From: Sedimenticola sp.
GTDB lineage: Bacteria; Pseudomonadota; Gammaproteobacteria; Chromatiales; Chromatiaceae
DNA: 64,000 nucleotides
Assembly (NCBI GenBank): GCA_026196475.1
Contig: JAPHTA010000014.1
Coordinates: forward strand, 934-64,933
Direction of reading: 5' to 3'
The notes beneath the pieces were generated by a model, which saw nothing but the letters and a program-made list of their open reading frames with translations, was not told where the DNA came from and ran no database searches. Below, in pieces: positions 5,417-36,291 of the stretch (position 1 is the first letter of the stretch; the number at the start of each line of letters is the position of its first letter). The position numbers and the translations under genes were made by a program.

Positions 5417-6676
5417 TTAGTCCGCCGGCGTGTAGAGGTCCGCCTCGTAATCCAGGGTGGCGAACAGATCCTCCAGGGTCTCCTCGCGCCGGATCAGCTC
5501 CACCGAACCATCGCTGCGCAACAACAGCTCCTTGGGGCGTGCCTTTCCGTTGTAGTTGAAGCCCATGGCGTGGCCGTGAGCCCCGGTATCGTGGATACAC
5601 AACAGATCACCATCGCTGACTTTCGGCAGCGTGCGCTGGATGGCGAACTTGTCGTTGTTCTCACACAGGGAGCCGGCCACGTCCACCACCTCGTCCGACC
5701 CGGAGTGGCCGGGTACCGTGATGTGGTGATAGGCGCCGTACATGCCGGGTCGCATCAGGGCGGACATGCAGGCATCGACCCCGACATAGGTGCGGTAGAT
5801 CTCCTTGCGATTGATCGCCCGGGTCACCAGGACACCGTGCGGGCCGGTGATGTAGCGCCCGCTCTCCACGTAGAGTTTCGGGGTATAGCCATGTTTCTGC
5901 CCGAATACCTGGAACAGCTCGGTGATCTCCCGCGCCATGGCGTCGATATCCAGGGCTGTCTCCTCGGGACGGTAGGGTATGCCAAGGCCGCCACCGATGT
6001 TGATAAAATCGAAACGGATGTCCAGCTCTTGGGAAATCCACTCCACACGCTCCAGCAGCATCCGTGCCGTCTCCACCATGTAGGTGTAGTTCAACTCGTT
6101 GGAGGCGAGCATGGTGTGCAGGCCAAACCGTTTCGCACCTCGCGCCTTGGCCCGCCGGTAGGCGTCCAGCAGCTGGTCGTGGGCGACACCGTACTTGGCC
6201 TCCACCGGGGTGCCGATGATGCTGTTACCGGTGCGCCGCTCTCCGGGGTTGTAACGGAAGCAGATCAGCTCCGGCATCTCCGGCACCTTGTCGACAAGCG
6301 AGATATCGTCCAGGTTGAGGACACATCCCCCTTCTGCCGCTGCCCCCTCGAAGTCGGTCTGGCTGGTGTTATTCGAGGTGAACATGATCTCCTCGCCGCG
6401 GGCACCGAGGTCCCGGCACAGGCGCAGCTCCGCCACCGAGCTGCAGTCGAAGCCGAAGCCGAGGGACTGCATGATCTGCAGGATGCGCGGATTGGGCAGC
6501 GCCTTAACCGCGTAGTACTCGCGAAAACCCTCTATCCCCGAGAACACCCGGTTCAGGTGTTCACCGGTATCGCGGATGCCCTGCTCGTCGTAGATGTGGA
6601 ACGGGGTGCCGTAGTGGTCGGCAATACCCTGCAGAAGCGGGTTGAGGCGCTGTTCGAAATCGGCTGACATCGGCAT
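5417..6676 (-). CDS. lysA: Diaminopimelate decarboxylase-family PLP enzyme (Orn/DAP/Arg decarboxylase fold)
   Basis: It has an alanine-racemase-fold decarboxylase N-terminus (YGTPFHIYDE, YAVKALPNP with the PLP lysine) and CENNDKF near the C-terminus. It lies directly downstream of dapL. Confidence 0.8.
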   Translation of the reverse strand: MPMSADFEQRLNPLLQGIADHYGTPFHIYDEQGIRDTGEHLNRVFSGIEGFREYYAVKALPNPRILQIMQSLGFGFDCSSVAELRLCRDLGARGEEIMFTSNNTSQTDFEGAAAEGGCVLNLDDISLVDKVPEMPELICFRYNPGERRTGNSIIGTPVEAKYGVAHDQLLDAYRRAKARGAKRFGLHTMLASNELNYTYMVETARMLLERVEWISQELDIRFDFINIGGGLGIPYRPEETALDIDAMAREITELFQVFGQKHGYTPKLYVESGRYITGPHGVLVTRAINRKEIYRTYVGVDACMSALMRPGMYGAYHHITVPGHSGSDEVVDVAGSLCENNDKFAIQRTLPKVSDGDLLCIHDTGAHGHAMGFNYNGKARPKELLLRSDGSVELIRREETLEDLFATLDYEADLYTPAD

Positions 6677-21351: not shown

Positions 21352-23283
21352 ATGAGACCCGGCACGAACAAAGCTCACGGTGGTCTGGTTACATCAGCCG
21401 TCCGAGGAACGAACGCAACTCCCATCACTGATTGCATCGTCCAATCCTGGAGACGCTGCCTGGACGAGTATGATCTTGATCCTGAACGACTTCCTGAACC
21501 CATCCTGATCGATCGCTCCGACCTGAAAGAGCGACAGGAGAAATCCTGCCGTCTGGTGGAAATCGCCCGCTCTGAGATGACCAATCTCTATCAACAGGTC
21601 ACCGGTTCAGGACATTCAATCCTGTTGACCGATATTGACGGTGTTGTTCTGAATTACGTGGGTGATCCCATGTTTACCAGTACTGCCGTCAAGACAGCGC
21701 TGCAAACCGGCGCGGTCTGGAGTGAAAAGGCCCAGGGCACTAACGGCATGGGAACCTGCCTTGTGGAAAAGCGCCCGCTGATCATTCACCAGGACGAACA
21801 CTTTTTTTCCAAGAACACACGCCTTACCTGCTCAGCCGCACCTATATTTGACCCCACCGGTCAACTGATAGCCGTACTGGATGCCTCGGGTGAATCGAGT
21901 CAGGCGCAGCAACACACCATGGTGCTGGTCAACATGTCCGCGCAACTGATTGAGAACCGGCTATTCCTCTGCAAGATGCGCGAAAACTACATTCTTCGTT
22001 TCCATAGCCGTCCGGAGTTTATCAGCACCCTGGGTGAAGGGGTTATTGCCTTCGACGAAACGGGCCAGGTTCAGGCAGCCAATCGCAGCGCGCTGTTTCA
22101 ACTGGATATGAAAGACATCATTGGTCGCCCCGTTGAAGAACTGTTTAATCTGCGCACCAACAATGCGCTTGGGAATGCACACAACCAGGCCATGGTGCCG
22201 CTACCGCTGCGGGATGCGAACCAGGGGAGACGTTTCTACGCAAGTTTCCAACCACCTAATCCTGAAAATGCCGCCAAACAGAAGCCCGGCCGGTCAACAC
22301 GGGTCTTCGTACCGGAAGCAGTGAACAATTCACCGACTCTCGAAGGACTTGAGTTTGGTGACAACCGCATGCGTCACAACATTGAACGGGCGAAAAAGCT
22401 TCTCGAACTTGATATACCCTTCATATTGCTTGGAGAGACAGGTACCGGAAAGGATGTCTTCGCCAACGCCGTGCATAAAACGAGTAGCCGGGCAAACAAA
22501 CCATTTATCGCAGTCAACTGCGCATCTTTGCCGGAGACACTGATAGAGAGCGAGCTGTTTGGATATCGGCCTGGAGCCTTTACCGGTGCGAGCAAAGAAG
22601 GATCCAGGGGGAAAATTGCACAAGCCCACGGTGGGACATTATTTCTTGACGAAATCGGTGACATGCCGCTGCATCTCCAGGCACGCCTACTACGGGTACT
22701 GGAAGAGAGGGAAGTCATACCGCTGGGTAGTGAAACACCCATCAAGGTGGATATACGCCTGATCAGCGCGACTCACCGGAATCTTCAGCTGCAGATCGAG
22801 GACGGAAGTTTCCGGGAAGACCTTTTTTACCGGCTGAACGGTATCAGCCTGCAGATGCCCCCACTCCGGGACCGGGAAGACCGACGCTCGCTGATTCAAC
22901 ACATCATGAAGCTGGAGTCAGCGGGTCAAGACAATATCGCTATTCAAGACCAGGCACTGGATGCACTGGAACAGTATGAATGGCCGGGTAATATGCGACA
23001 GCTGCGCAATATCATGCGCACCCTGATTGGCCTATGCGACAACAACCACATTGGTCTGGACGATTTGCCGGAGGAGATATTCAGTGATTGTGGTGACGAT
23101 ACCGGTGAACCAAGACAACGCGCCCGGCCCAGCAACCCCCTGGACATAGCCGAGCGTGATGCAATCATCCGTGAGTTGGAGGCCGCGCACTGGAATGTTA
23201 CGAGGGTTGCCACGAAATTGAACATCAGTCGCAACACTATGTACCGGAAAATGAAACGTTACGATATCAAGCCACCGCGCTAG
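21352..23283 (+). CDS. Sigma-54-dependent transcriptional activator, AcoR-like (N-terminal GAF-type sensor, AAA+ core, Fis-type HTH)
   Basis: It has Walker A GETGTGKD, the sigma-54 contact loop GAFTGA, an arginine-finger region and the C-terminal HTH LNISRNTMYRKMKRY. The ~300-aa N-terminal sensor region resembles AcoR-type regulators. Confidence 0.9.
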   Translation: MRPGTNKAHGGLVTSAVRGTNATPITDCIVQSWRRCLDEYDLDPERLPEPILIDRSDLKERQEKSCRLVEIARSEMTNLYQQVTGSGHSILLTDIDGVVLNYVGDPMFTSTAVKTALQTGAVWSEKAQGTNGMGTCLVEKRPLIIHQDEHFFSKNTRLTCSAAPIFDPTGQLIAVLDASGESSQAQQHTMVLVNMSAQLIENRLFLCKMRENYILRFHSRPEFISTLGEGVIAFDETGQVQAANRSALFQLDMKDIIGRPVEELFNLRTNNALGNAHNQAMVPLPLRDANQGRRFYASFQPPNPENAAKQKPGRSTRVFVPEAVNNSPTLEGLEFGDNRMRHNIERAKKLLELDIPFILLGETGTGKDVFANAVHKTSSRANKPFIAVNCASLPETLIESELFGYRPGAFTGASKEGSRGKIAQAHGGTLFLDEIGDMPLHLQARLLRVLEEREVIPLGSETPIKVDIRLISATHRNLQLQIEDGSFREDLFYRLNGISLQMPPLRDREDRRSLIQHIMKLESAGQDNIAIQDQALDALEQYEWPGNMRQLRNIMRTLIGLCDNNHIGLDDLPEEIFSDCGDDTGEPRQRARPSNPLDIAERDAIIRELEAAHWNVTRVATKLNISRNTMYRKMKRYDIKPPR

Positions 23284-23353: not shown

Positions 23354-23866
23354 ATGCCGAGAATGAATCGTTTTGCCGTGCGCGTTCACCCGGGTGAACT
23401 CCATTTTAACGCAGCGCACTTTATCACCTTCAATCGGAGCTGTGAAAACTTACATGGACATAACTTCCATCTGAGCGTGGAGGCTTGGGGAGAAAAGACC
23501 CCGGATGCCTTCGTCATCGATTTTGTTCTGTTGAACAAGCTTGCCGCCAACATCTGCGAAGAGCTCCATGACGGTGTACTGGTACCAACGGAAAGCGAAG
23601 AGATTACACTCTCCGAACTGGAAAATGACATGCTTGAGATTCGCAGCTATGACAAACGTTTTATCCTGAGTCGAGCCAGCTGTATTCTTTTACCGATAAC
23701 AAATACCACTGCAGAGATGCTCGCGTCCCATATCAGCAACCGTCTTATCGAAAGACTGCGGGCAGATCGGGGAATTGGCAATCTGCAGACACTGAAAGTC
23801 TCTGTAGAAGAAGCGGATCACCAGTGGGGAATCTGTCTGCGGGAGATCACCCATGACCAATACTGA
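23354..23866 (+). CDS. 6-pyruvoyl-tetrahydropterin synthase (QueD/PTPS) family protein of H4MPT clusters
   Basis: The PTPS metal/catalytic motif AAHFITFNRSCENLHGHNFHL is present. The ATG at 23363 has better AGGA spacing and may be the true start. Confidence 0.8.
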   Translation: MPRMNRFAVRVHPGELHFNAAHFITFNRSCENLHGHNFHLSVEAWGEKTPDAFVIDFVLLNKLAANICEELHDGVLVPTESEEITLSELENDMLEIRSYDKRFILSRASCILLPITNTTAEMLASHISNRLIERLRADRGIGNLQTLKVSVEEADHQWGICLREITHDQY

Positions 23867-28655: not shown

Positions 28656-29228
28656 ATGAGCGAACGGATACATGAAGTTATCGTAGTTACCTGCAATCCT
28701 GATGGATCACCGCATATTGCACCCATGGGCATCCGGCAGCGAGGCAGTCAATTACTGATCGCTCCCTTTCGTCCCTCGAAAACGCTGGACAACCTGCTAC
28801 GGGAGGGGAACGCCAGTATCAACACCACCGATGATGTTCGTGTTTACGCCGGCTGCCTGACCCAACACTTTCAGTGGCCCCTTGTGAAGTGCGAGAGAAT
28901 CGAGGGACTTCGCCTGCGAGATGCGCTGAGCCATGAGGAGATCAGCGTTTATCGGATAAAAGATGATGTCGAGCGACCTGAGCTTGTCTGCGAGCGGATT
29001 CATCATGCCAATCATCGTCCATTCAACGGTTACAACCGTGCACAGGCAGCCGTAATTGAGCTGGCCATACTGGTCAGTCGCTTTCATCTACTCACGCCTG
29101 AAAAACTGGAGAACGAAATCACGTACCTGAAAATCGCCATTGACAAGACAGCAGGTCGTAAAGAGCATGAGGCCTGGGACTGGCTGATGAAGAAGGTTCA
29201 CTCCTATAGGAAGAGGAATTGTGCATGA
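28656..29228 (+). CDS. DUF447 family protein (H4MPT-cluster associated, flavin-reductase-like fold)
   Basis: The N-terminus MSERIHEVIVVTCNPDGSPHIAPMGI is typical of DUF447. The start is at the ATG after GAGG, and an ATGA overlap leads into mfnB. Confidence 0.7.
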   Translation: MSERIHEVIVVTCNPDGSPHIAPMGIRQRGSQLLIAPFRPSKTLDNLLREGNASINTTDDVRVYAGCLTQHFQWPLVKCERIEGLRLRDALSHEEISVYRIKDDVERPELVCERIHHANHRPFNGYNRAQAAVIELAILVSRFHLLTPEKLENEITYLKIAIDKTAGRKEHEAWDWLMKKVHSYRKRNCA

Positions 29229-29941
29229 CCGGTCTGTTGGCCAGCATCTGTTCGACCGAAGAAGCGGCGATAGCTTTGAATGCGTACGCTGACATTATCG
29301 ATTGTAAAGATCCCTCGCGAGGCGCACTGGGCGCACTCGACCCCGGCAAGATCAGGGAAATCGTCAACGCCGTAGATGGGAAACGGCCAGTCAGCGCCAC
29401 CCTGGGGGACCTTCCCCCCGACCCCGAGCGGATAAGAATCGCCATCCGGAAAACAGCTCACTGTGGCGTCGACTACATCAAACTCGGGCTGTTCGATGAA
29501 GCCACCGCAGCCGGCTGCATTGAGGCACTGGAAGAGGTATGCGGACAACATAAACTGATCGCCGTCTGCTTTGCCGACCGATTCGACCCCTCTTCACTCG
29601 TCCCGCTACTCGCCCTGTACGGTTTTTACGGGGTGATGATTGATACTGCGGAAAAGCTATCGGGCCGCCTGACCGATCTCTGGACCCTGGATCGCCTCTC
29701 CCACTTTGTCGACCAGGCTCGACGATATGGACTGGTCTGTGGAGTGGCCGGTCGCCTGACGATTGACGACATTCCCTCTCTGTTGTCGATCAAGGCTGAT
29801 TACCTGGGGTTTCGCAGTGCACTCTGTATCTCTGATCGGACGAGTCGAATTGAACATGAGGCGGTAGTGAAGGCAAGAAATGCCCTGTCGCGTCGCCAGG
29901 ACGCGGCTGCAGTCAGCACACCTCTTCCGTCTGTGCGCTAA
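29225..29941 (+). CDS. mfnB: (5-formylfuran-3-yl)methyl phosphate synthase (methanofuran biosynthesis, DUF556)
   Basis: It is MfnB-like: LLASICSTEEAAIALNAYADIIDCKDPSRGALGAL, including the Schiff-base lysine region. The ATG at 29225 follows GAGGA. Confidence 0.8.
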   Translation: MTGLLASICSTEEAAIALNAYADIIDCKDPSRGALGALDPGKIREIVNAVDGKRPVSATLGDLPPDPERIRIAIRKTAHCGVDYIKLGLFDEATAAGCIEALEEVCGQHKLIAVCFADRFDPSSLVPLLALYGFYGVMIDTAEKLSGRLTDLWTLDRLSHFVDQARRYGLVCGVAGRLTIDDIPSLLSIKADYLGFRSALCISDRTSRIEHEAVVKARNALSRRQDAAAVSTPLPSVR

Positions 29942-30303
29942 TGACAATCTGCCCGCAGATCCGAAGACAGCGCGCCATAATCGAGGGGCTGCATGGTTTG
30001 GAGACGATCACCGATCAGATTGTCAGGCAGGTACTGCAGGCGATGACAAACACACTCGGTATGAAACCGATTGCGGAAACGGTGATCTTCTCTCCGGATC
30101 ATGTCAGTGAATTGCATCATGGCATAGGCGGTTTTCAGGCATGGGCGGAATCCGGTTGTTCACTCTACACCTGGCGTGATTACAGGCTTTTCACTCTGGA
30201 CCTTTACTCGTGCAAACCCTTCGCAGTATCCGATTGTATCCAGAAGCTTGAGGTTATCTTGCTCCCGGAGGCTATTGAGTGGCGTGACATTCGTTCCAGG
30301 TAG
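29941..30303 (+). CDS. Class 1 S-adenosylmethionine decarboxylase-like (SpeH/SpeD fold) pyruvoyl-enzyme homologue, substrate unknown
   Basis: This 120-aa ORF aligns by eye to SpeH. AESGCSLYTWRDYRLFTLDLYSCKP matches [25 protein letters not shown], so the E-S cleavage pair and catalytic Cys are kept. A TAATG overlap joins it to the mfnB stop. Confidence 0.6.
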   Translation: MTICPQIRRQRAIIEGLHGLETITDQIVRQVLQAMTNTLGMKPIAETVIFSPDHVSELHHGIGGFQAWAESGCSLYTWRDYRLFTLDLYSCKPFAVSDCIQKLEVILLPEAIEWRDIRSR

Positions 30304-30369
30304 AAAAAAATGGGCTACGGAGTAGTAACCCTGCGGCCCCAAGCGGAGGTCAGGTAGTCGACGTGTTTT

Positions 30370-30915
30370 CTACGCCGTAATGGGGGCCGGCCAGTCACTG
30401 TACCCATCCCGATGGACCAGCCTGACTTCACCATTCCATAGCCGACGATACCCTTCAAATGCGGAATCCAGAAGATCCGGTCCTGGCATTGTTACCGAAG
30501 CTGATTTTACCAGCAATACACCTTCCGCTCTGACTCCCATCGCAAGCCACAACGCCAGGCTATCAGAAGTCACCCCCCAACTGCGATCAACATCAGGGTC
30601 TTCCGCCGCAGGGAGCCAAATCGCGCTGTGACCGCTGGCAACCATTTTTTTCAGCTGACCCGGTTCGGCGGCTGTTTTCAGGCGTGCTTGAATACCCGCC
30701 ATCAAAAGGCCGTACTGATCCATAGCACAAAGCGCCATACTGTGGGCTGTCGTATCACCAAAATGCCACCGCTGTTGTGCCGCGCGCACCTGATCCGCAA
30801 ACGGCCCGCCTCCGGGGACCAGTATCACGGGATGACCGCCGTTCGCCACTACATTGAGCCAGGCGGCCAGGCTGGGGCTGCCAAACAGACTGCCCCCAAT
30901 CTTAACTACCCACAT
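30370..30915 (-). CDS. mfnE: Amino-acid-kinase-fold protein, probable [5-(aminomethyl)furan-3-yl]methyl phosphate kinase
   Basis: It has the N-terminal kinase motif VVKIGGSLF and VPGGGPFAD. It overlaps the pabB stop by 14 nt and belongs to the mfn gene set. Confidence 0.6.
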   Translation of the reverse strand: MWVVKIGGSLFGSPSLAAWLNVVANGGHPVILVPGGGPFADQVRAAQQRWHFGDTTAHSMALCAMDQYGLLMAGIQARLKTAAEPGQLKKMVASGHSAIWLPAAEDPDVDRSWGVTSDSLALWLAMGVRAEGVLLVKSASVTMPGPDLLDSAFEGYRRLWNGEVRLVHRDGYSDWPAPITA

Positions 30916-32287
30916 GGGACCACCGTCTCTGCTTGATCAAACGCAGCATGGCTGAAGCCTTGTCAAAGGTTTCCTGATATTCCGCATCCGCCTCAGAGGC
31001 ATGTACAATTCCCCCACCTGCCCAACATCGAATCTCGCCCTCGTTATAGACCAGCGTACGTATCGTGATATTGCTGTCCATCCGGCCATCGAAACCTATG
31101 TAGGCAATCGATCCACAATAGAGGCCGCGTCGATCGGGCTCCAGCTCTGCAATGATCTCCATCGCACGTATCTTGGGTGCGCCGGTAATGGATCCTCCGG
31201 GAAAACAGGATCGCATCAGTCCAACCGCATCCTGATTATCCTTGAGTTCCCCCGTTACCGTACTGACCAGGTGATGCACAGTAGCAAAACTCTCGACAGA
31301 GAAGATTTCCGGGACCTTGATTGTTCCAGGCCTGCAGACGTGTCCCAGATCATTGCGCAACAGGTCTACTATCATCAGATTCTCGGATCTGTCTTTGTCG
31401 CTACACGCCAATTCCCGAGCCATGGCGGAATCGCTTTCCGGTGTACTCCCCCGAGGTCGTGTACCTTTAATGGGCCTGGTTTCAACCTGTTTACCCCTGA
31501 GCATCAGGAAGCGCTCCGGTGAAGAGCAGAGAATCTCGGCTTGCGGCGTTTTCAGGTAGGCCGAGTAGGGAGCAGGATTCGTTTTTCTCAGTGCTTTGTA
31601 GGCGCTCCAACCGTCCCCCCTTGCAGACGCGGAAAATCGCTGCGCGATATTCACCTGATAACAGTCACCCTCCTGGATGTAGTGCTTGACTCGCTTGAAA
31701 GCAGCCCTATAGGTGGCCCTGTCCATGTTGCATTTGACCGGGCCGGTAATCTCGAACGGTCGCTCGTCTGGTGGATCGGCAGGGGTGCAGAAGCGTCGGA
31801 TCAGCGACCACCATTTCCCACGGGTACGCGGATCCCTGCCTTGGGTAACCAACCAACTGCGGCGCCGTTCATGATCAACAACAACCGCCCAGTCAAACAA
31901 TCCGATGACCATCTCCGGAAGATGTTCACGATTCCCTGCCTGTTCCGGCAACCGTTCCAAACGCCATGCGAGATCATAGGAGAACCAGCCGATGGCGCCG
32001 CCACAAAACGGTAAGCCAGAACTGTTTTCCGTAACCGCTCCCAACGCATCGCGAAGGAGCTCGAAAGGATCATCCGGACTCAGGCGGATACCCTCATCGC
32101 TGCGTATCTCGGTAATATGCTCCCGCGTAACCAGAGTCAGATAGGGGTCTGCCGCCAGGATGTCATAGCGCCCGACGCTGGTTTTTGGATACCCACTATC
32201 CAGAAACACGGCCCAGGGCATCGCTGCCATGCGCGAGAATAGTTTTGCACTGTCATGCGAATACGGTATTTGTACACTCAGGCACAT
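30902..32287 (-). CDS. pabB: Aminodeoxychorismate synthase component I
   Basis: Chorismate-binding enzyme motifs are present (FPGGSITGAPKIRAMEIIAELE, RGLYCGSIAY). At 461 aa it has the PabB-like N-terminal length. Confidence 0.85.
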   Translation of the reverse strand: MCLSVQIPYSHDSAKLFSRMAAMPWAVFLDSGYPKTSVGRYDILAADPYLTLVTREHITEIRSDEGIRLSPDDPFELLRDALGAVTENSSGLPFCGGAIGWFSYDLAWRLERLPEQAGNREHLPEMVIGLFDWAVVVDHERRRSWLVTQGRDPRTRGKWWSLIRRFCTPADPPDERPFEITGPVKCNMDRATYRAAFKRVKHYIQEGDCYQVNIAQRFSASARGDGWSAYKALRKTNPAPYSAYLKTPQAEILCSSPERFLMLRGKQVETRPIKGTRPRGSTPESDSAMARELACSDKDRSENLMIVDLLRNDLGHVCRPGTIKVPEIFSVESFATVHHLVSTVTGELKDNQDAVGLMRSCFPGGSITGAPKIRAMEIIAELEPDRRGLYCGSIAYIGFDGRMDSNITIRTLVYNEGEIRCWAGGGIVHASEADAEYQETFDKASAMLRLIKQRRWSHVGS

Positions 32288-33312
32288 ACATCACTCCGTC
32301 GCCGATCCAGGTGCAGCAATGCAACTGCCGGAGCACAATTTGCGGCAATTACTCCGTAGTCGGTATTTTCCGCTAGCAGCTTCTCCATATCGATATAGGA
32401 GTGCCCCAGGCGATCTGCCACCCGCTCTACCAGAAAACGGCCCACGCCAGCCCCTATCAACACTGTAGAGGGGTTTGGACTGAGACTTGACAGTCGCTGA
32501 CATGCCAGGGAAAGCATATCCATTTGTCGATCGGCAAAAAAAGCTGCTAACCGGTACCAGTCAATGTCGCTTCCGTCAGCCCTATCGGCACCGATCATTC
32601 GGGCCAAGCGTCTCATGCTCCCGGGGACCGAGTGATCCTTGCCATCTGCCGACGGATAGAGGTCGGCATCTTCTGGCAGTTCGCCCAAAATGCGGTAGAC
32701 ATCGGCAGTCGTCGCGAAATGCTCGCTGGCAAGTGAAACCCATTCTCCTCTGAATGGTACCCTGCGGGTCACAGCCATCAACGGTGTACGCACAACTCCC
32801 GCGTAAATCATTTCACCGTATGAAAGGCGTTCACGATCGGTGAAACCCCTGTTTCGCAGGTGATGTTTCTCGAACGGTAGCAGATCACTCGTGGTACTGC
32901 CGACGTCAATTACTATGCCGGCTGAAACCGCTGAGGCCGCAAAAGAGGCTGTAGCCAACCAGTTTGCCGAGGCGATCTGATCAGCATGCGCACTCGCTTC
33001 CGCTGCCGGCACGAACCCTTTAGGGCCGGCATAAAAGAGCAAGGTATCTGAGGGTAACAGGGTTCGCAACTGACCAACCAGCTCACGAACACCCGACTGC
33101 CGGTCGTTAAACAGGTCAACAAGCTCTGCTGTCATGGTTACTCGGTGTTCACACTGTCCGACCGGAAGCTCTTTCGCAATCTCCCGTATCGCCTGACCCA
33201 ATGACTCCAGACCTTGCCACAAAGGCGTGGCACGAATCTCTACATGACGTAGCACATCATGCCCGTCTTTCCATGCCATTTTCAGGTGGGCCCCGCCTAC
33301 ATCCCAGCCCAT
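32278..33312 (-). CDS. mfnF: Hydantoinase-A-like H4MPT-linked C1 transfer pathway protein, probable methanofuran synthase MfnF
   Basis: It has the ASKHA-fold N-terminus MGWDVGGAHLK and DVGSTTSD. I set the start at the first ATG; the track start is GTG. Confidence 0.65.
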   Translation of the reverse strand: MGWDVGGAHLKMAWKDGHDVLRHVEIRATPLWQGLESLGQAIREIAKELPVGQCEHRVTMTAELVDLFNDRQSGVRELVGQLRTLLPSDTLLFYAGPKGFVPAAEASAHADQIASANWLATASFAASAVSAGIVIDVGSTTSDLLPFEKHHLRNRGFTDRERLSYGEMIYAGVVRTPLMAVTRRVPFRGEWVSLASEHFATTADVYRILGELPEDADLYPSADGKDHSVPGSMRRLARMIGADRADGSDIDWYRLAAFFADRQMDMLSLACQRLSSLSPNPSTVLIGAGVGRFLVERVADRLGHSYIDMEKLLAENTDYGVIAANCAPAVALLHLDRRRSDVCA

Positions 33313-33322
33313 TGTTCCGCGA

Positions 33323-34321
33323 TCAGGCAACACGACCCAACTCCAGGTCGATATGTACACATTCACCGGTGATCAGACCGGTTGGCAGTGCGTCCGGGGA
33401 TTCCGCAAGTTGCATTATCATCTCTGCAAGATTTCTGCCCGTCGACTGGGTTAATCCAACATAGGCAGTAGTTAAGCGGGGATTAATCTCAAGAACAACG
33501 GGCCCCTGGTCGGTAAGAATAAGGTCGACACCGACATAACCCCAAAGACCCGGTATCGCCTCGCAGATTCGTTTCGAAATACCAAGTAATTCTGCCTGGT
33601 GGCTCTGGAGACCGTTGACAACGCAACCCAGCAAGTCAAAGCCGTCATTCATCTGTACTACCTGCTGAATATTGGTTCCGACAAGACAGACACGACAGTG
33701 ACCGACCATGACAGACATGCTTATGGACTGCCCTGCCAGGTAGGGCTGAACCACCCACTCGATCAGCGGATCCCGACTCTCCACGTACGCCTGAAGCGCG
33801 TTGTCATTCGCAATGATGTGGATATCCCGGCATCCAACACCATGATCCGGCTTTACCACCAGCGGCTGGCTGGAAAAAATGGGATGACTTCCATATCGCC
33901 AGGTAGGTATCACTGGTACGCCCTGCATTGCCAGGCAATCGACGGTGGCCTTTTTGCTGGATGCTATCGCTACGGCCTCTGCACTGCTATTCAGTAACAG
34001 TTTTCCTGACGCCTCCACTGAGCGACACAGAGACTCCAGAACACCATGGGTTTCCGGCGCGATGGGTAACACGGCATCCGCTTCTTCCAGGCACAATAAC
34101 CATGCGCTCCACCAATCGTTGTCTACCCAGTGGATACTGCTTGCCAGAGAAAGCGCATCGAGGCGAGCATCCCGACAAATCAACACCTCAATCGATTCAA
34201 GCTGGCTAAAGTCGCTGACGACCGCATCAAGCATCATGTCGCCTTCGGCCTTAAGGCTTGGTATCATCTCCTCGTTGACACAACCACCACCGGTTATGTA
34301 CTCAAATACAAAGATCCGCAT
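33323..34321 (-). CDS. mfnD: ATP-grasp enzyme, probable tyramine/tyrosine-glutamate ligase
   Basis: The N-terminus MRIFVFEYITGGG and an ATP-grasp core (GYVGVDLILTDQGPVVLEINPR) are typical of MfnD-like proteins in C1 clusters. Confidence 0.65.
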   Translation of the reverse strand: MRIFVFEYITGGGCVNEEMIPSLKAEGDMMLDAVVSDFSQLESIEVLICRDARLDALSLASSIHWVDNDWWSAWLLCLEEADAVLPIAPETHGVLESLCRSVEASGKLLLNSSAEAVAIASSKKATVDCLAMQGVPVIPTWRYGSHPIFSSQPLVVKPDHGVGCRDIHIIANDNALQAYVESRDPLIEWVVQPYLAGQSISMSVMVGHCRVCLVGTNIQQVVQMNDGFDLLGCVVNGLQSHQAELLGISKRICEAIPGLWGYVGVDLILTDQGPVVLEINPRLTTAYVGLTQSTGRNLAEMIMQLAESPDALPTGLITGECVHIDLELGRVA

Positions 34322-34330
34322 ACAAACTCC

Positions 34331-35014
34331 TTGAATATCATCCCTGTCATAGATCTTTTACGAGGCTGCGTGGTTCACGCCGTTCAAGGACGTCGTGCCG
34401 CATACCGCGCGATCAACTCACCACTATGTCATCATGGGGAAGTCATTCCGTTGGTGACCCGGCTTTGCGATGACTTTGGCATACAACAGCTCTACGTAGC
34501 TGATCTGGACGCCATACAGGGGTATGGCGACAACGTTTCCACCCTGCAACTTGTTGCTCATACCTTTCCCCGCCTCGATCTTTGGATTGACGCGGGATTC
34601 TCCTCGCCTGCATCCCTTCAGGTACTGAAGGAAATGCTCGATTTCCGCCCGGTTATCGGTTCAGAAAGCTGGCGATATCTTCGCCGTTTTCCTTTCGGGG
34701 AGGCCATTCTTTCCATTGATTCCACAGACGAAATCCTGCTCGATCCGTCTGGCATCACTCGTGATAGTGACCGGCGTCCGAATACACTCATTCTGATGAA
34801 TCTCTCGCGTGTCGGGTCGCTACAGGGTCCAGATATGAAAGGGCTTGAGTATTGGCGGTCTGCTGCGCCCGGCACCAATCTGTATATGGCTGGCGGAGTG
34901 CGAAACCGACTTGATATCGAAAAACTGCAGTCAGCAGGTGCCACGGGTGTGTTACTGGCAAGTGCGCTGCATAATGGCGCCTTGAATGCCGGGGATTTCA
35001 GGTGTTTCAGCTGA
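34331..35014 (+). CDS. HisA/HisF-family (beta/alpha)8 barrel protein of H4MPT clusters
   Basis: NIIPVIDLLRGCVVHAVQG is the HisA/HisF N-terminal signature, and GGVRN lies near the C-terminus. I infer the start at the TTG at 34331, because the longer track ORF overlaps the divergent mfnD. Confidence 0.6.
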   Translation: MNIIPVIDLLRGCVVHAVQGRRAAYRAINSPLCHHGEVIPLVTRLCDDFGIQQLYVADLDAIQGYGDNVSTLQLVAHTFPRLDLWIDAGFSSPASLQVLKEMLDFRPVIGSESWRYLRRFPFGEAILSIDSTDEILLDPSGITRDSDRRPNTLILMNLSRVGSLQGPDMKGLEYWRSAAPGTNLYMAGGVRNRLDIEKLQSAGATGVLLASALHNGALNAGDFRCFS

Positions 35015-36233
35015 CCGAACATGCTTTCATCCTTGATTTATCTGCCGGCTGAATCAAACGCTGCCTGAGGTCGGTAACCTGACTTGTGGAACGAAATGGA
35101 TACAACACCGACTCGGCACCCTGTACCTGCAGTTCCGACAGCGACCTTCCCTGATAGTCACACCATGAGTGGGTCGTCTCGTACAGGCGCAATCCACTCA
35201 ATCCAGGCAGGTAGTCAATCAGCCTCTCCCAGATATAGACACACAGCATTTCGGTGCTGGAACGCCAGGCCAACGCTTCCGCTGTGTAATTCAGGTGGTG
35301 ATGGTCAAAGCGATCGATAACTTGCCGGTTCACCACGCGTTTAAGATACCCGTAATCCACCACGCACCCGGTTAACGGATCAATACGCCCGGTTACTTCC
35401 ACCTGTAGAACATACCTCCCCCCATGCAGATTGGAGCATTTGGCCGGGTGATCGGTAATAAAATGTGCGGAATCAAATACCAGTTCCTTGGTTACTTTCG
35501 CAGCTGGACCCGTCGCCTGAAATCTCTCCCAGGCCGTAGGCATGTTCATCAGGCGTGCACGCAGTATCTGAAGCAGTTTCTCACCATCTGTGTGCGTCAA
35601 CGTGCGTAATATCAGTGAATCATCGGAATTTGATACATCCAGCACCCGACAACGGATTTGATGGTGACAGGCCAGGTACTCCCTTACTTCATGGGCATAA
35701 CTGGCCTGGTTGAATTCCATAAACAGATAATCCGCATGCCACTCCGCTCGGAAAGCAATATACACGGCCAGGGCATCCAGAAAGGAGGGAGGAGGTTCGG
35801 GCAACGCGCCGACATGAACCAGGTTTCTAAGCGGCGCTCGCAACAGGTTTCTTGCAACCACGCGATGGGTATCCGATCGGTATTCGTACAGCTGGCGGAA
35901 CTGAAAACCATAATCCGCCAGACGATCAAGTGTCCACAACAGCAGGTCAAGGCGCCGGATTTCACCGGGTACCTCGACGAAACCGGCATTCTCCTGTAAT
36001 AGTCCTGCCCACCGTAGCCCCAGTAGCGCCTGTCGTGCTGCCTCGGTTGGTCTGCTCGTGGAACGGGCGTAGTTTTTCACTTGATCAGGTTGATTAATCT
36101 GATCGCCATGAAGCAGCATGTCCAGCGGCAGGTGGTGACGTATCGCGTATTCCTGAAGCGTCAAGCTGCTACATACCAGCAAATGCTCATTATCCAGTTG
36201 AGATACGCTTTCCCCACATTCCAAACAGTGCAT
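35007..36233 (-). CDS. Two-domain protein: unknown ~250-aa N-terminal domain (CxxC start) fused to a PTPS/QueD-like C-terminal domain
   Basis: The C-terminal FDSAHFITDHPAKCSNLHGGRYVLQVEV aligns to the PTPS motif, but reads HGG where PTPS has HGH. The ATG at 36233 is preceded by AGGAG and lies downstream of the fae terminator hairpin. Confidence 0.65.
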   Translation of the reverse strand: MHCLECGESVSQLDNEHLLVCSSLTLQEYAIRHHLPLDMLLHGDQINQPDQVKNYARSTSRPTEAARQALLGLRWAGLLQENAGFVEVPGEIRRLDLLLWTLDRLADYGFQFRQLYEYRSDTHRVVARNLLRAPLRNLVHVGALPEPPPSFLDALAVYIAFRAEWHADYLFMEFNQASYAHEVREYLACHHQIRCRVLDVSNSDDSLILRTLTHTDGEKLLQILRARLMNMPTAWERFQATGPAAKVTKELVFDSAHFITDHPAKCSNLHGGRYVLQVEVTGRIDPLTGCVVDYGYLKRVVNRQVIDRFDHHHLNYTAEALAWRSSTEMLCVYIWERLIDYLPGLSGLRLYETTHSWCDYQGRSLSELQVQGAESVLYPFRSTSQVTDLRQRLIQPADKSRMKACSVS

Positions 36234-36252
36234 AACCGACTCCTGATCCGGA

Positions 36253-36282
36253 GAAAAAGTGTGGGGTCCTGTGGGACCCCAC
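36253..36282 (-). terminator. Intrinsic terminator/attenuator hairpin after fae
   Basis: On the minus strand the sequence is GTGGGGTCC-CACA-GGACCCCAC (perfect 9-bp GC-rich stem) followed by ACTTTTTCT. It starts 10 nt after the fae stop. Confidence 0.65.
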
Positions 36283-36291
36283 AACGATCAT

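Follow-up and report, generated by a model that had tools for sequence, protein, structure and literature searches.

A candidate pyruvoyl-dependent tyrosine decarboxylase of the AdoMetDC fold encoded with methanofuran biosynthesis genes in bacteria and archaea

In a 64,000-nucleotide stretch of DNA from Sedimenticola sp. (the window), a gene located at positions 29941 to 30303 of the plus strand encodes a 120-residue protein of the S-adenosylmethionine decarboxylase (AdoMetDC) fold. We predict, with moderate confidence, that this protein is a pyruvoyl-dependent tyrosine decarboxylase of methylofuran biosynthesis that stands in for MfnA. The tyramine building block of the cofactor is probably made by a route that is new to description. 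The protein retains the serine and the cysteine of the AdoMetDC active site, and linkage of its gene to mfn genes occurs in both bacteria and archaea; we infer that it processes itself, uses tyrosine as its substrate, and replaces MfnA. A role in the synthesis of methanofuran or methylofuran, and not of polyamines, is the best explanation of the data.

The gene begins on the stop codon of mfnB (29219 to 29941, plus strand; PF04476, 226 bits), which encodes the 4-(hydroxymethyl)-2-furancarboxaldehyde-phosphate synthase. The ATG (29941 to 29943) and the mfnB TAA (29939 to 29941) have one base in common in the sequence TAATG (29939 to 29943, plus strand), an arrangement indicative of translational coupling. 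Both the 120-residue open reading frame (ORF) and the overlap had been pointed out in a preliminary description of the window, and both were seen in the sequence. Among 34 close homologues of the ORF product, 41 alignment columns are invariant, a degree of conservation that argues against a chance ORF. Since the N terminus is conserved in the homologues (R9, R11, E15, and G16), the 120-residue start was preferred to that of the 101-residue recorded version (P0001). The upstream ORF ends 1, 4, or 8 nucleotides beyond the first base of the AdoMetDC-fold gene in 13 of 14 related bacterial loci and also in locus L106. Homologues of the protein are called S-adenosylmethionine decarboxylase in public records.

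The sole Pfam match of the 120-residue protein was PF02675 (AdoMet_dc), with a score of 37.6 bits (E = 3e-9) for a gathering cutoff of 25 bits. The AlphaFold2 model (pLDDT of 89, pTM of 0.84) had, as its best PDB matches in Foldseek, the class 1b AdoMetDCs 2iii, 1vr7, 1tlu, and 1tmi, with TM scores of 0.72 to 0.79. The class 1b AdoMetDC fold was thus confirmed at the level of the predicted structure, in agreement with the Pfam assignment. The alignment to class 1 SpeH proposed earlier was likewise borne out by Pfam, by the profile alignment to 2iii and 1tlu, and by Foldseek. The protein has in common with class 1b AdoMetDCs (SpeH/SpeD), including those of Thermotoga maritima (1TLU/1VR7) and Aquifex aeolicus (2III), the fold, a size of ca. 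120 residues, and the PF02675 domain. However, class 1b AdoMetDC has speE as a partner, whereas the gene described here has a cofactor biosynthesis cluster devoid of speE. The protein is ca. 22% identical to canonical AdoMetDC members, and its score for TIGR03330 (the SAM_DCase_Bsu equivalog), 25.6 bits, is below the cutoff of 75.65.

Residue equivalences were obtained by profile alignment to 2iii and 1tlu, and residue roles were taken in part from published work (PMC1282579; Li 2023). The predicted self-cleavage site, Glu70-Ser71 (codons at 30148 to 30153, plus strand), aligns with Glu62-Ser63 of T. maritima AdoMetDC, and Cys91 (30211 to 30213, plus strand) aligns with the catalytic proton donor of that enzyme, Cys83. 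As the preliminary description had it, the Glu-Ser pair (AESG) and the catalytic Cys (YSCK) are therefore kept. Cleavage is predicted to generate a β chain comprising residues 1 to 70 (7.8 kDa) and an α chain comprising residues 71 to 120 (6.0 kDa). Neither Ser71 nor Gly72 varies within the mfn-linked clade, and both are almost invariant in the entire family; Cys91 is likewise invariant in the clade. In AdoMetDC, this Cys protonates the decarboxylated intermediate (PMC1282579).

The His residues of the SpeH ESHxxxH motif are replaced (ESGCSLY), again as first described, since Gly72 aligns with T. maritima His64 (Ser+1) and Tyr76 (30166 to 30168, plus strand) aligns with His68 (Ser+5). Tyr is invariant at position 76 throughout the mfn-linked clade, whereas His at Ser+5 is conserved in functional AdoMetDC homologues (legend to Fig. 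S5 of Li 2023, PMC10407285). A further replacement, additional to those listed previously, is that of T. maritima Ser55 by Gly63. Neither of the processing-assisting residues of AdoMetDC, His68 and Ser55, thus has an equivalent in the mfn-linked clade, and for this reason self-processing may fail, may need a partner, or may use another base. His59 (30115 to 30117, plus strand), which is invariant throughout the mfn-linked clade, may be the stand-in for the absent processing His. On the basis of the alignment, we take the ribose-binding Glu of AdoMetDC to be that of the TWPE motif; the corresponding position is occupied by Asp80 in the protein and is unconserved in the mfn-linked clade, where the column contains D, E, P, V, I, H, or A. 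The Glu of AdoMetDC binds the ribose hydroxyls of SAM (PMC1282579).

Profile annotation of the window recovered all of the neighbors reported in the preliminary description, i.e., mfnB, mfnE, mfnF, mfnD, and pabB. The AdoMetDC-fold gene is convergent with an mfnE-like kinase gene (30370 to 30915, minus strand; best match to NF040622 MfnE; PF00696). The same strand carries pabB (30902 to 32287; assigned by annotation), an mfnF-like gene for an H4MPT-linked C1 transfer pathway protein (32278 to 33366; TIGR03123, 329 bits, above the cutoff, with NF040623 MfnF as the second match), and a gene for an MfnD-like ATP-grasp ligase of the tyramine-glutamate ligase type (33323 to 34321; best match to NF040722 MfnD; preATP-grasp_3 and ATP-grasp_3 domains), which is the presumed consumer of tyramine. 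A terminator-like hairpin with a T-run, located between the convergent genes (30312 to 30331, minus strand), is predicted from a consensus match only to serve the minus-strand operon. A HisA/HisF-related gene (34130 to 35014, plus strand; TIGR00734-like) is also present, and this gene accompanies mfnD-F-E in bacterial islands and in Bathyarchaeia clusters alike. At the head of the island, a gene encodes a sigma-54/GAF activator (21352 to 23283, plus strand; assigned by annotation); in "Ca. Thiodiazotropha," the activator orthologue is found immediately upstream of a solitary copy of the AdoMetDC-fold gene.

The window contains the full "archaeal-like" H4MPT/methylofuran island of methylotrophs (orf genes, MyfA/MyfB; Hemmann 2021, PMC8141765), represented by afpA, a DUF6513 pterin-binding gene, fhcABCD, DUF447, mfnB/E/F, fae, mch, mtdB, mptG, and ATP-grasp ligase genes. 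That study does not name the AdoMetDC-fold gene as part of the methylotroph island; it equates Orf22, Orf21, and Orf9 with MfnB, MfnE, and MfnF and contains no mention of an AdoMetDC-like gene. Correspondence of the AdoMetDC-fold gene to the orf19 found in Methylobacterium H4MPT islands was considered and dropped, orf19 being listed without a description in one paper. Among the ORFs of the window that were scanned, no match was found to PF00282 (PLP decarboxylase) or to PF01564 (spermidine synthase), and the earlier statements that the window has no PLP-type MfnA and that no spermidine synthase gene is nearby accordingly hold.

Linkage of the AdoMetDC-fold gene to mfn genes was found in other genomes, both bacterial and archaeal. 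In bacteria, the gene is immediately 3′ of mfnB in 18 of 21 loci. Scanning of the genome collection with clade-specific patterns retrieved 10 loci, all of which are from Sedimenticola, Thiodiazotropha, or of the Chromatiales type, and the bacterial clade comprises only two clusters at 50% identity. The closest relatives are found in Bathyarchaeia; they are ca. 47% identical to the bacterial proteins and form the sister group of the bacterial clade in a neighbor-joining tree. For the archaeal clade, 34 metagenome loci had at least 5 kb of flanking sequence on one side, and 22 of these were linked to mfn genes versus 12 that were not. Ten additional archaeal loci, fetched by protein identity (L011 to L019 and L025), are in mfnD-mfnF-mfnE-mfnB clusters. 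The archaeal mfn clusters containing the gene display at least five gene orders, the gene being directly beside mfnD in L043 and in L045 to L048. Several Bathyarchaeia clusters consist of mfnB/D/E/F and a HisA/F-like gene, without H4MPT genes. Thus, the linkage that spans the two domains is to the methanofuran genes mfnB/D/E/F and not to the H4MPT genes, and its recurrence across bacteria and archaea in differing gene orders is not explained by chance placement. The exceptions are the unlinked loci of the archaeal clade (ca. one-third) and two "Ca. Thiodiazotropha" loci. Neighbors of the gene in the unlinked archaeal loci L053 and L062 are CoA transferase, diphthamide synthase, and radical-SAM genes, with no other functional clue.

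PF00282 was absent from the inspected flanks (up to 10 kb) of the clusters encoding MfnB, D, E, and F, and no aminotransferase gene was found in the clusters encoding mfn genes at the inspected loci. PF01564 was absent from the Pfam-annotated related loci, and neither speE, an agmatinase gene, nor other polyamine genes were found nearby in the window or in the related loci inspected. A PLP-type MfnA was also sought at the site of the AdoMetDC-fold gene in islands that lack this gene, but the four islands concerned, those of Methylobacillus, Thiohalocapsa, Thiorhodococcus, and a Burkholderiales MAG, simply stop at mfnB. In M. flagellatus, a candidate PLP-type MfnA is encoded elsewhere in the genome (PMC8141765).

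Beyond the mfn-linked clade, a wider branch of the AdoMetDC fold, comprising more than 3,700 sequence clusters, has Ser-Gly...Tyr...Cys instead of Ser-His...His...Cys and is distributed in DPANN archaea, CPR bacteria, Bathyarchaeia, and cyanobacteria. Little or no variation is seen at Ser71, Gly72, Tyr76, Trp78, and Cys91 over thousands of members while the residue preceding the Ser varies, indicating an active-site pattern rather than decay. None of the inspected loci of distant DPANN and CPR members was linked to mfn genes. Since CPR and DPANN organisms are not expected to make methanofuran, the fold variant does not by itself specify a function. A tandem pair in one CPR bacterium consists of a wider-branch gene and a canonical ESHxxxH paralogue. 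Within this large, unstudied, His-less branch of the AdoMetDC fold, the mfn-linked clade would be the first to which a role can be assigned.

Formyl groups are carried by methanofuran and methylofuran in methanogenesis and in bacterial formaldehyde oxidation, and the synthesis of the core of these cofactors is regarded as solved in one methanogen (MfnA to MfnF). Conversion of tyrosine to tyramine is the sole decarboxylation in this established pathway (PMC8141765). Tyramine-type methylofuran was found in strains without an MfnA homologue, a finding taken by its authors to mean that other tyrosine decarboxylases must exist, and an MfnD-type paralogue goes with most tyramine-type strains (Hemmann 2021, PMC8141765). 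Methylorubrum extorquens, by contrast, produces methylofuran of the tyrosine type and can accept tyramine (PMC8141765). The published findings argue that an enzyme of the type proposed here is needed. The three MfnA-less strains of that study have no obvious close orthologue of the AdoMetDC-fold protein, given the two 50%-identity clusters of the bacterial clade, and may use something else. The preliminary description had suggested either a tyrosine-to-tyramine enzyme or another decarboxylation step, including one in H4MPT side-chain synthesis. The former is favored by the linkage to mfnB/D/E/F, whereas the H4MPT option did not stand, since some clusters contain mfn genes without H4MPT genes. 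A role in H4MPT or pABA synthesis, prompted by the adjacent pabB and pterin genes, was rejected on the same grounds, as the Bathyarchaeia clusters hold only mfnB/D/E/F and the HisA/F-like gene.

According to the proposed mechanism, the 13.8-kDa chain would cleave itself between Glu70 and Ser71, and Ser71 would be converted into the N-terminal pyruvoyl group of the 6-kDa α chain. This group would form a Schiff base with the α-amino group of l-tyrosine, leading to the loss of CO2, protonation of the carbanion by Cys91, possibly with the assistance of Tyr76, and release of tyramine. The adjacent MfnD-like ligase would then join tyramine and glutamate, and MfnF would link the product to the furan unit formed by MfnB, an aminotransferase, and MfnE. 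The AdoMetDC-fold enzyme would thus be a nonhomologous replacement of the PLP enzyme MfnA. The proposed reaction and place in the pathway, the supply of tyramine to MfnD, are those of MfnA (M. jannaschii MJ0050, PF00282). However, MfnA has an unrelated fold and uses PLP in ca. 390 residues, in contrast to a protein-derived pyruvoyl group in 120 residues. Since the likeness is functional only, the AdoMetDC-fold protein is not a member of the MfnA family.

A precedent for the proposed change of substrate is provided by SpeDA and SpeDC, in which the fold acts on a simple amino acid instead of SAM and the pyruvoyl chemistry is kept. The recruitment of AdoMetDC homologues as Arg and Orn decarboxylases, on which the preliminary description had relied, is indeed documented (PMC10407285). 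SpeDA and SpeDC keep the conserved His and are encoded with polyamine genes, whereas the mfn-linked clade has Tyr and is encoded with mfn genes. The same study makes no mention of tyrosine, methanofuran, or methanopterin, and a literature search found no paper describing a role of the AdoMetDC fold in methanofuran synthesis, in line with the initial view that such a role is undescribed.

The linkage data, which concern the mfn genes as a set, could also reflect a different step or substrate within methanofuran or methylofuran synthesis, such as decarboxylation of a tyrosine-furan ether or an MfnC-type amination, an explanation that we regard as possible but unlikely. The tyrosine-furan ether intermediate still has a free α-amine. 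The tightest bacterial coupling is to the furan-forming mfnB and not to mfnD, and the mfn clusters are as devoid of an aminotransferase as they are of a decarboxylase. Moreover, a glutamate-free core species has been seen, the order of the steps was left open, and the bacterial MfnC is not yet identified (Hemmann 2021, PMC8141765). If the pyruvoyl group were a transamination cofactor converting 4-HFC-P, the product of MfnB, into aminomethylfuran, the protein would be an aminotransferase replacing MfnC; this would explain both the coupling to mfnB in particular and the clusters without an aminotransferase, but we consider it highly improbable. Several archaeal loci have the gene directly beside mfnD, which argues against a different step. 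To our knowledge, all characterized enzymes of the AdoMetDC fold are α-decarboxylases, and we know of no pyruvoyl-dependent aminotransferase. General aminotransferases encoded elsewhere can also serve the MfnC step, five candidates being present in M. extorquens (PMC8141765).

The absence of both processing-assisting residues would fit a nonprocessing, noncatalytic AdoMetDC-like protein that regulates or scaffolds another enzyme of the pathway, comparable to the trypanosomatid prozyme, or a protein dependent on a maturation partner. AdoMetDC-like proteins that are not cleaved are reported from trypanosomatids (PMC3686867), and the tandem arrangement with a canonical paralogue in the CPR bacterium could indicate a heteromer. 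However, the family-wide conservation of Ser71, Gly72, Tyr76, Trp78, and Cys91 next to a variable pre-Ser residue, together with the lack of a second AdoMetDC paralogue in the mfn clusters inspected, makes this explanation quite improbable. We consider it very unlikely that the gene encodes an ordinary polyamine enzyme present in the island by chance, be it a SAM decarboxylase or an Arg/Orn decarboxylase of the SpeDA/SpeDC kind. The TIGR03330 score far under the cutoff, the lack of conservation of the acidic ribose-binding residue, the lack of polyamine genes in the window and in the related loci inspected, and the recurrent linkage to mfn genes in bacteria and archaea outweigh the Pfam AdoMet_dc match, the name under which the homologues are recorded, and the Arg and Orn decarboxylase activities known in the fold (PMC10407285). 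The features of SpeDA/SpeDC (Gly, Ser, His, and Cys, with polyamine neighbors) are not those of the protein, which has Tyr in place of the His and no polyamine genes near.

The source of tyramine in tyramine-type bacteria lacking MfnA was left open by Hemmann 2021 (PMC8141765). If our prediction is correct, a 120-residue pyruvoyl-dependent tyrosine decarboxylase would close this gap for Sedimenticola-type sulfur oxidizers and Bathyarchaeia, and the AdoMetDC fold would gain a third class of amino acid substrates. Since the proteins of bacteria and Bathyarchaeia are ca. 47% identical, a cofactor pathway gene may have been transferred laterally between domains. Assignment of tyrosine decarboxylase activity would also correct a widespread misannotation as S-adenosylmethionine decarboxylase and would provide a first functional foothold in thousands of proteins lacking the His regarded as common to all functional members of the fold.

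The AdoMetDC-fold gene occupies positions 29941 to 30303 of the window (+ strand) and encodes a protein of 120 residues. The gene located in 5′ is mfnB (PF04476, 226 bits), and the TAA stop codon of mfnB overlaps the ATG start codon of the AdoMetDC-fold gene by one base (TAATG, positions 29939 to 29943). The public call of this ORF, P0001, is a protein of 101 residues starting at an internal TTG codon. Residues R9, R11, E15, and G16 of the N-terminal strand, which are invariant across homologues, precede that codon and are missing from P0001, indicating, on the basis of the alignment, that the 120-residue start is correct. The shorter call probably results from the gene caller steering clear of the overlap with mfnB. 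In 13 of the 14 loci examined, the upstream ORF ended 1, 4, or 8 nt inside the AdoMetDC-fold gene. Thus, coupling to the upstream ORF, as reported for the window in the preliminary description, is itself conserved.

The protein matched the Pfam AdoMet_dc model (PF02675) with 37.6 bits for a gathering score of 25 but scored 25.6 bits against the NCBIfam S-adenosylmethionine (SAM) decarboxylase equivalog (TIGR03330), which has a cut-off of 75.65. An AlphaFold2 model computed from 21 homologues (pLDDT of 89, pTM of 0.84) was closest in the PDB to the class 1b AdoMetDCs of Aquifex (2iii) and Thermotoga (1vr7/1tlu/1tmi), with TM scores of 0.72 to 0.79, and the expected fold was thereby recovered. 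Profile alignment to the matched chains placed Glu70-Ser71 on the cleavage pair of Thermotoga maritima AdoMetDC (Glu62-Ser63) and Cys91 on Cys83. Gly72 and Tyr76 replaced His64 and His68, respectively, and Gly63 replaced Ser55, the latter substitution being absent from the preliminary description. That account, in which the Glu-Ser pair and the catalytic Cys were retained and the His residues of the SpeH motif replaced, was otherwise accurate, since the ORF, the Pfam match, the model, and the residue alignment all agree with it. In AdoMetDCs, processing involves abstraction of the α-proton of Ser by a His (PMC1282579). The presence of Tyr at the His position and of Gly at the Ser55 position in the clade calls for caution on self-processing. 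Judging from the alignment, the missing His might be substituted by Tyr76 or by His59, which is invariant in the mfn-linked clade, or processing might depend on a partner protein or on a different chemistry.

The gene is located within a complete H4MPT/methylofuran island (~23.3 to 44.6 kb of the window), preceded by a gene for a sigma-54/GAF activator (21352 to 23283). The island comprises, in this order, a small PTPS-like gene, afpA, a DUF6513-type pterin-binding gene, fhcB, fhcA, DUF447, mfnB, the AdoMetDC-fold gene, mfnE, pabB, an mfnF-like gene, an MfnD-like ATP-grasp gene, a HisA/F-related gene, a long PTPS-like gene, fae, a CitG-like gene, a RimK-type ATP-grasp gene, mch, a second ATP-grasp gene, mtdB, a GHMP-kinase (MptG-like) gene, fhcD, and fhcC. 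Genes for an NAD-linked formate dehydrogenase are found after the island, as is folE2. Among the window ORFs scanned, none matched PF00282 (PLP decarboxylase) or PF01564 (spermidine synthase), in keeping with the reported lack of a PLP-type MfnA and of a nearby spermidine synthase. The long PTPS-like gene (35007 to 36284, − strand) encodes a 425-residue protein in which the PTPS/QueD-like domain is confined to residues 264 to 379, following a long N-terminal region that opens with a weak Ros/MucR zinc-finger-like match; related islands share this architecture. The small PTPS-like gene is located at 23354 to 23866. The HisA/HisF-related gene (34130 to 35014; L011, 3445 to 4176; L015, 8444 to 9169; L025, 3364 to 4101) accompanies mfnD-mfnF-mfnE in bacterial islands and Bathyarchaeia clusters alike, and its nearest model, TIGR00734, scores below the cut-off. 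We know of no step in methanofuran synthesis assigned to this gene.

Association with mfnB extended to other genomes. The AdoMetDC-fold gene was found directly 3′ of mfnB in 18 of 21 bacterial loci, which are not all independent (the window, 10 loci from species-representative genomes, 8 from metagenomes, and 2 retrieved by protein identity). One Chromatiales MAG (CBDUNM01) has the island region twice, in L007 and L010. The L010 copy is decayed, mfnB and fhcA persisting only as fragments while the AdoMetDC-fold gene is intact; this copy may be a decaying duplicate or reflect a strain mix in the bin. Two "Ca. Thiodiazotropha" genomes carry the gene outside any such island (L004, 7887 to 10354; L006, 7698 to 10351), where it stands alone, directly following an orthologue (69% identity) of the window's sigma-54/GAF activator and preceding a ModABC-like transporter, as if the intervening island genes had been lost or moved. 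These symbionts are reported to retain the H4MPT/Fhc pathway (PMC6712303). Four related islands (Thiorhodococcus, a Burkholderiales MAG, Methylobacillus, and Thiohalocapsa) all stop at mfnB and lack the AdoMetDC-fold gene, so that the gene is an addition specific to certain lineages. Its absence is compatible with another source of tyramine in those genomes but is no proof of one; Methylobacillus flagellatus has a PLP candidate, Mfla_2033 (PMC8141765). A pterin-4a-carbinolamine dehydratase gene (PF01329) closely follows the AdoMetDC-fold gene in a single bacterial island (L106, 11189 to 11581), and another, in a Nanoarchaeota locus (L020, 5332 to 5604), closely precedes a distant member of the family, which may be a coincidence. 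Some bacterial MfnB homologues (P0384, P0402, P0405, P0412, and P0418), e.g., in Mesorhizobium, are fused to FolB (dihydroneopterin aldolase, PF02152), and many JGI records designate plain MfnB as "dihydroneopterin aldolase."

In archaea, the 10 loci retrieved through exact protein matches (to four different proteins) were all in mfn clusters containing a HisA/F-like gene, mfnD, mfnF, mfnE, and mfnB. Among 34 archaeal-clade loci from metagenomes that retained a flank of 5 kb or more on one side, 22 were mfn linked, in at least five gene orders: the gene follows a divergent mfnB, heads a hisAF-mfnD-F-E operon, lies 1.2 kb upstream of such an operon, immediately precedes mfnD with mfnF divergent, or immediately precedes mfnD-mfnF. 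The remaining 12, from three subclades, had unrelated neighbors, and no mfn linkage was detected in the DPANN/CPR-type members inspected. Linkage that withstands rearrangement across two domains is strong evidence for a shared function of the AdoMetDC-fold gene and the mfn genes. Several archaeal clusters carrying the gene contain no H4MPT gene, indicating that this function is in methanofuran rather than H4MPT synthesis. Thus, of the two cofactor pathways initially considered, methanofuran/methylofuran synthesis was retained and H4MPT synthesis was not.

The 34 close homologues (52 to 78% identity) all belonged to Sedimenticola, "Ca. Thiodiazotropha," and related gammaproteobacterial MAGs. 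An exhaustive profile search of 1.84 billion representatives returned 637 matches, only four of them below 1e-30; the next-best group came from archaea (Bathyarchaeia), in which P0036 scored 148 bits and was 46.6% identical to the window protein. At an E value of ≤1e-8, the wider family exceeded 3,700 clusters (90% identity), with hosts including Nanoarchaeota, Woesearchaeota, cyanobacteria, Bathyarchaeia, and CPR (Azambacteria, Shapirobacteria, Gracilibacteria). In 150 representatives, the motif was x-Ser-Gly...Tyr..Trp...Tyr-[ST]-Cys-Lys, whereas canonical enzymes have Glu-Ser-His...His-Thr-Trp-Pro-Glu. Crude neighbor-joining distance trees, which are not maximum likelihood, grouped the bacterial and Bathyarchaeia clades together within this family, apart from the canonical enzymes. 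The family (P0036 to P0183 and P0198 to P0313; motif at 30148 to 30213 of the window) is apparently a very large uncharacterized branch of the AdoMetDC fold, and nearly all its records are automatically named "S-adenosylmethionine decarboxylase." Fusions of 277 to 418 residues (P0037, P0064, P0065, P0082, P0084, P0092, P0097, P0113, and P0121) combine an N-terminal domain of this type with an unidentified C-terminal region; P0037 (Gracilibacteria) alternatively displays two matched stretches. In "Ca. Azambacteria" (L022/L023), a canonical AdoMetDC-type gene (LLESHISFHTWP; ESHISFHTWP; 5636 to 5971) precedes a Ser-Gly...Tyr-type paralogue (WVESGASIYVWE; 6001 to 6366) by 30 nt on the same strand, and the two products could act as separate enzymes in one pathway or form a heteromer.

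To our knowledge, all characterized AdoMetDC-fold enzymes are pyruvoyl-dependent α-decarboxylases. Within this fold, arginine and ornithine are known to have taken the place of SAM as substrates (PMC10407285). The established pathway for the methanofuran core relies on six enzymes, MfnA (PLP-dependent conversion of Tyr to tyramine), MfnB (furan aldehyde phosphate), MfnC (transamination), MfnD (tyramine-glutamate ligase), MfnE (kinase), and MfnF (coupling), and the MfnA step is its sole decarboxylation (PMC8141765). Gene-carrying clusters encode MfnB, MfnD, MfnE, and MfnF, and neither a PLP decarboxylase nor an aminotransferase was found within them. An MfnD-type ligase is present in the window, and Hemmann et al. 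found this paralogue in most tyramine-type methylofuran producers and concluded from three tyramine-type strains without an MfnA homologue that other tyrosine decarboxylases exist (PMC8141765). Together, these observations led us to propose that the AdoMetDC-fold protein is a tyrosine decarboxylase replacing MfnA. The protein would cleave itself at Glu70-Ser71 into chains of 7.8 and 6.0 kDa, and the pyruvoyl group so formed would serve to decarboxylate L-tyrosine, with the proton donated by Cys91. Cotranslation with MfnB would keep both moieties of the cofactor core in balance.

A role in methanofuran/methylofuran biosynthesis rather than in polyamine synthesis appears quite probable, an assessment that adds together the tyrosine decarboxylase and a different step or substrate in this pathway and is raised slightly because the linkage is strong. 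Its fold and Pfam match make the protein a member of the AdoMetDC superfamily, but it differs from SAM decarboxylases by its equivalog score, the conserved His, the ribose-binding Glu, and the speE partner and from SpeDA/SpeDC by the conserved His and the polyamine context. For tyrosine decarboxylation specifically, we lean only slightly in favor. The tandem CPR pair with its canonical ESHISFHTWP paralogue keeps alive a role as a partner subunit. A tyrosine decarboxylase of this type would work like MfnA but is unrelated to it. Since the bacterial clade is narrow (two 50%-identity clusters, 10 species-representative loci), it does not by itself explain the three strains devoid of MfnA.

As far as computation reaches, the analysis supports the initial interpretation. 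No description of a methanofuran-pathway role for such a protein was found in the literature searched. We propose that the substrate and pathway role are new for this known fold, whose catalytic set is altered here. A gap that had been stated explicitly for a cofactor pathway thereby becomes directly testable, and the AdoMetDC-fold gene offers a first entry point to a very large misannotated family.
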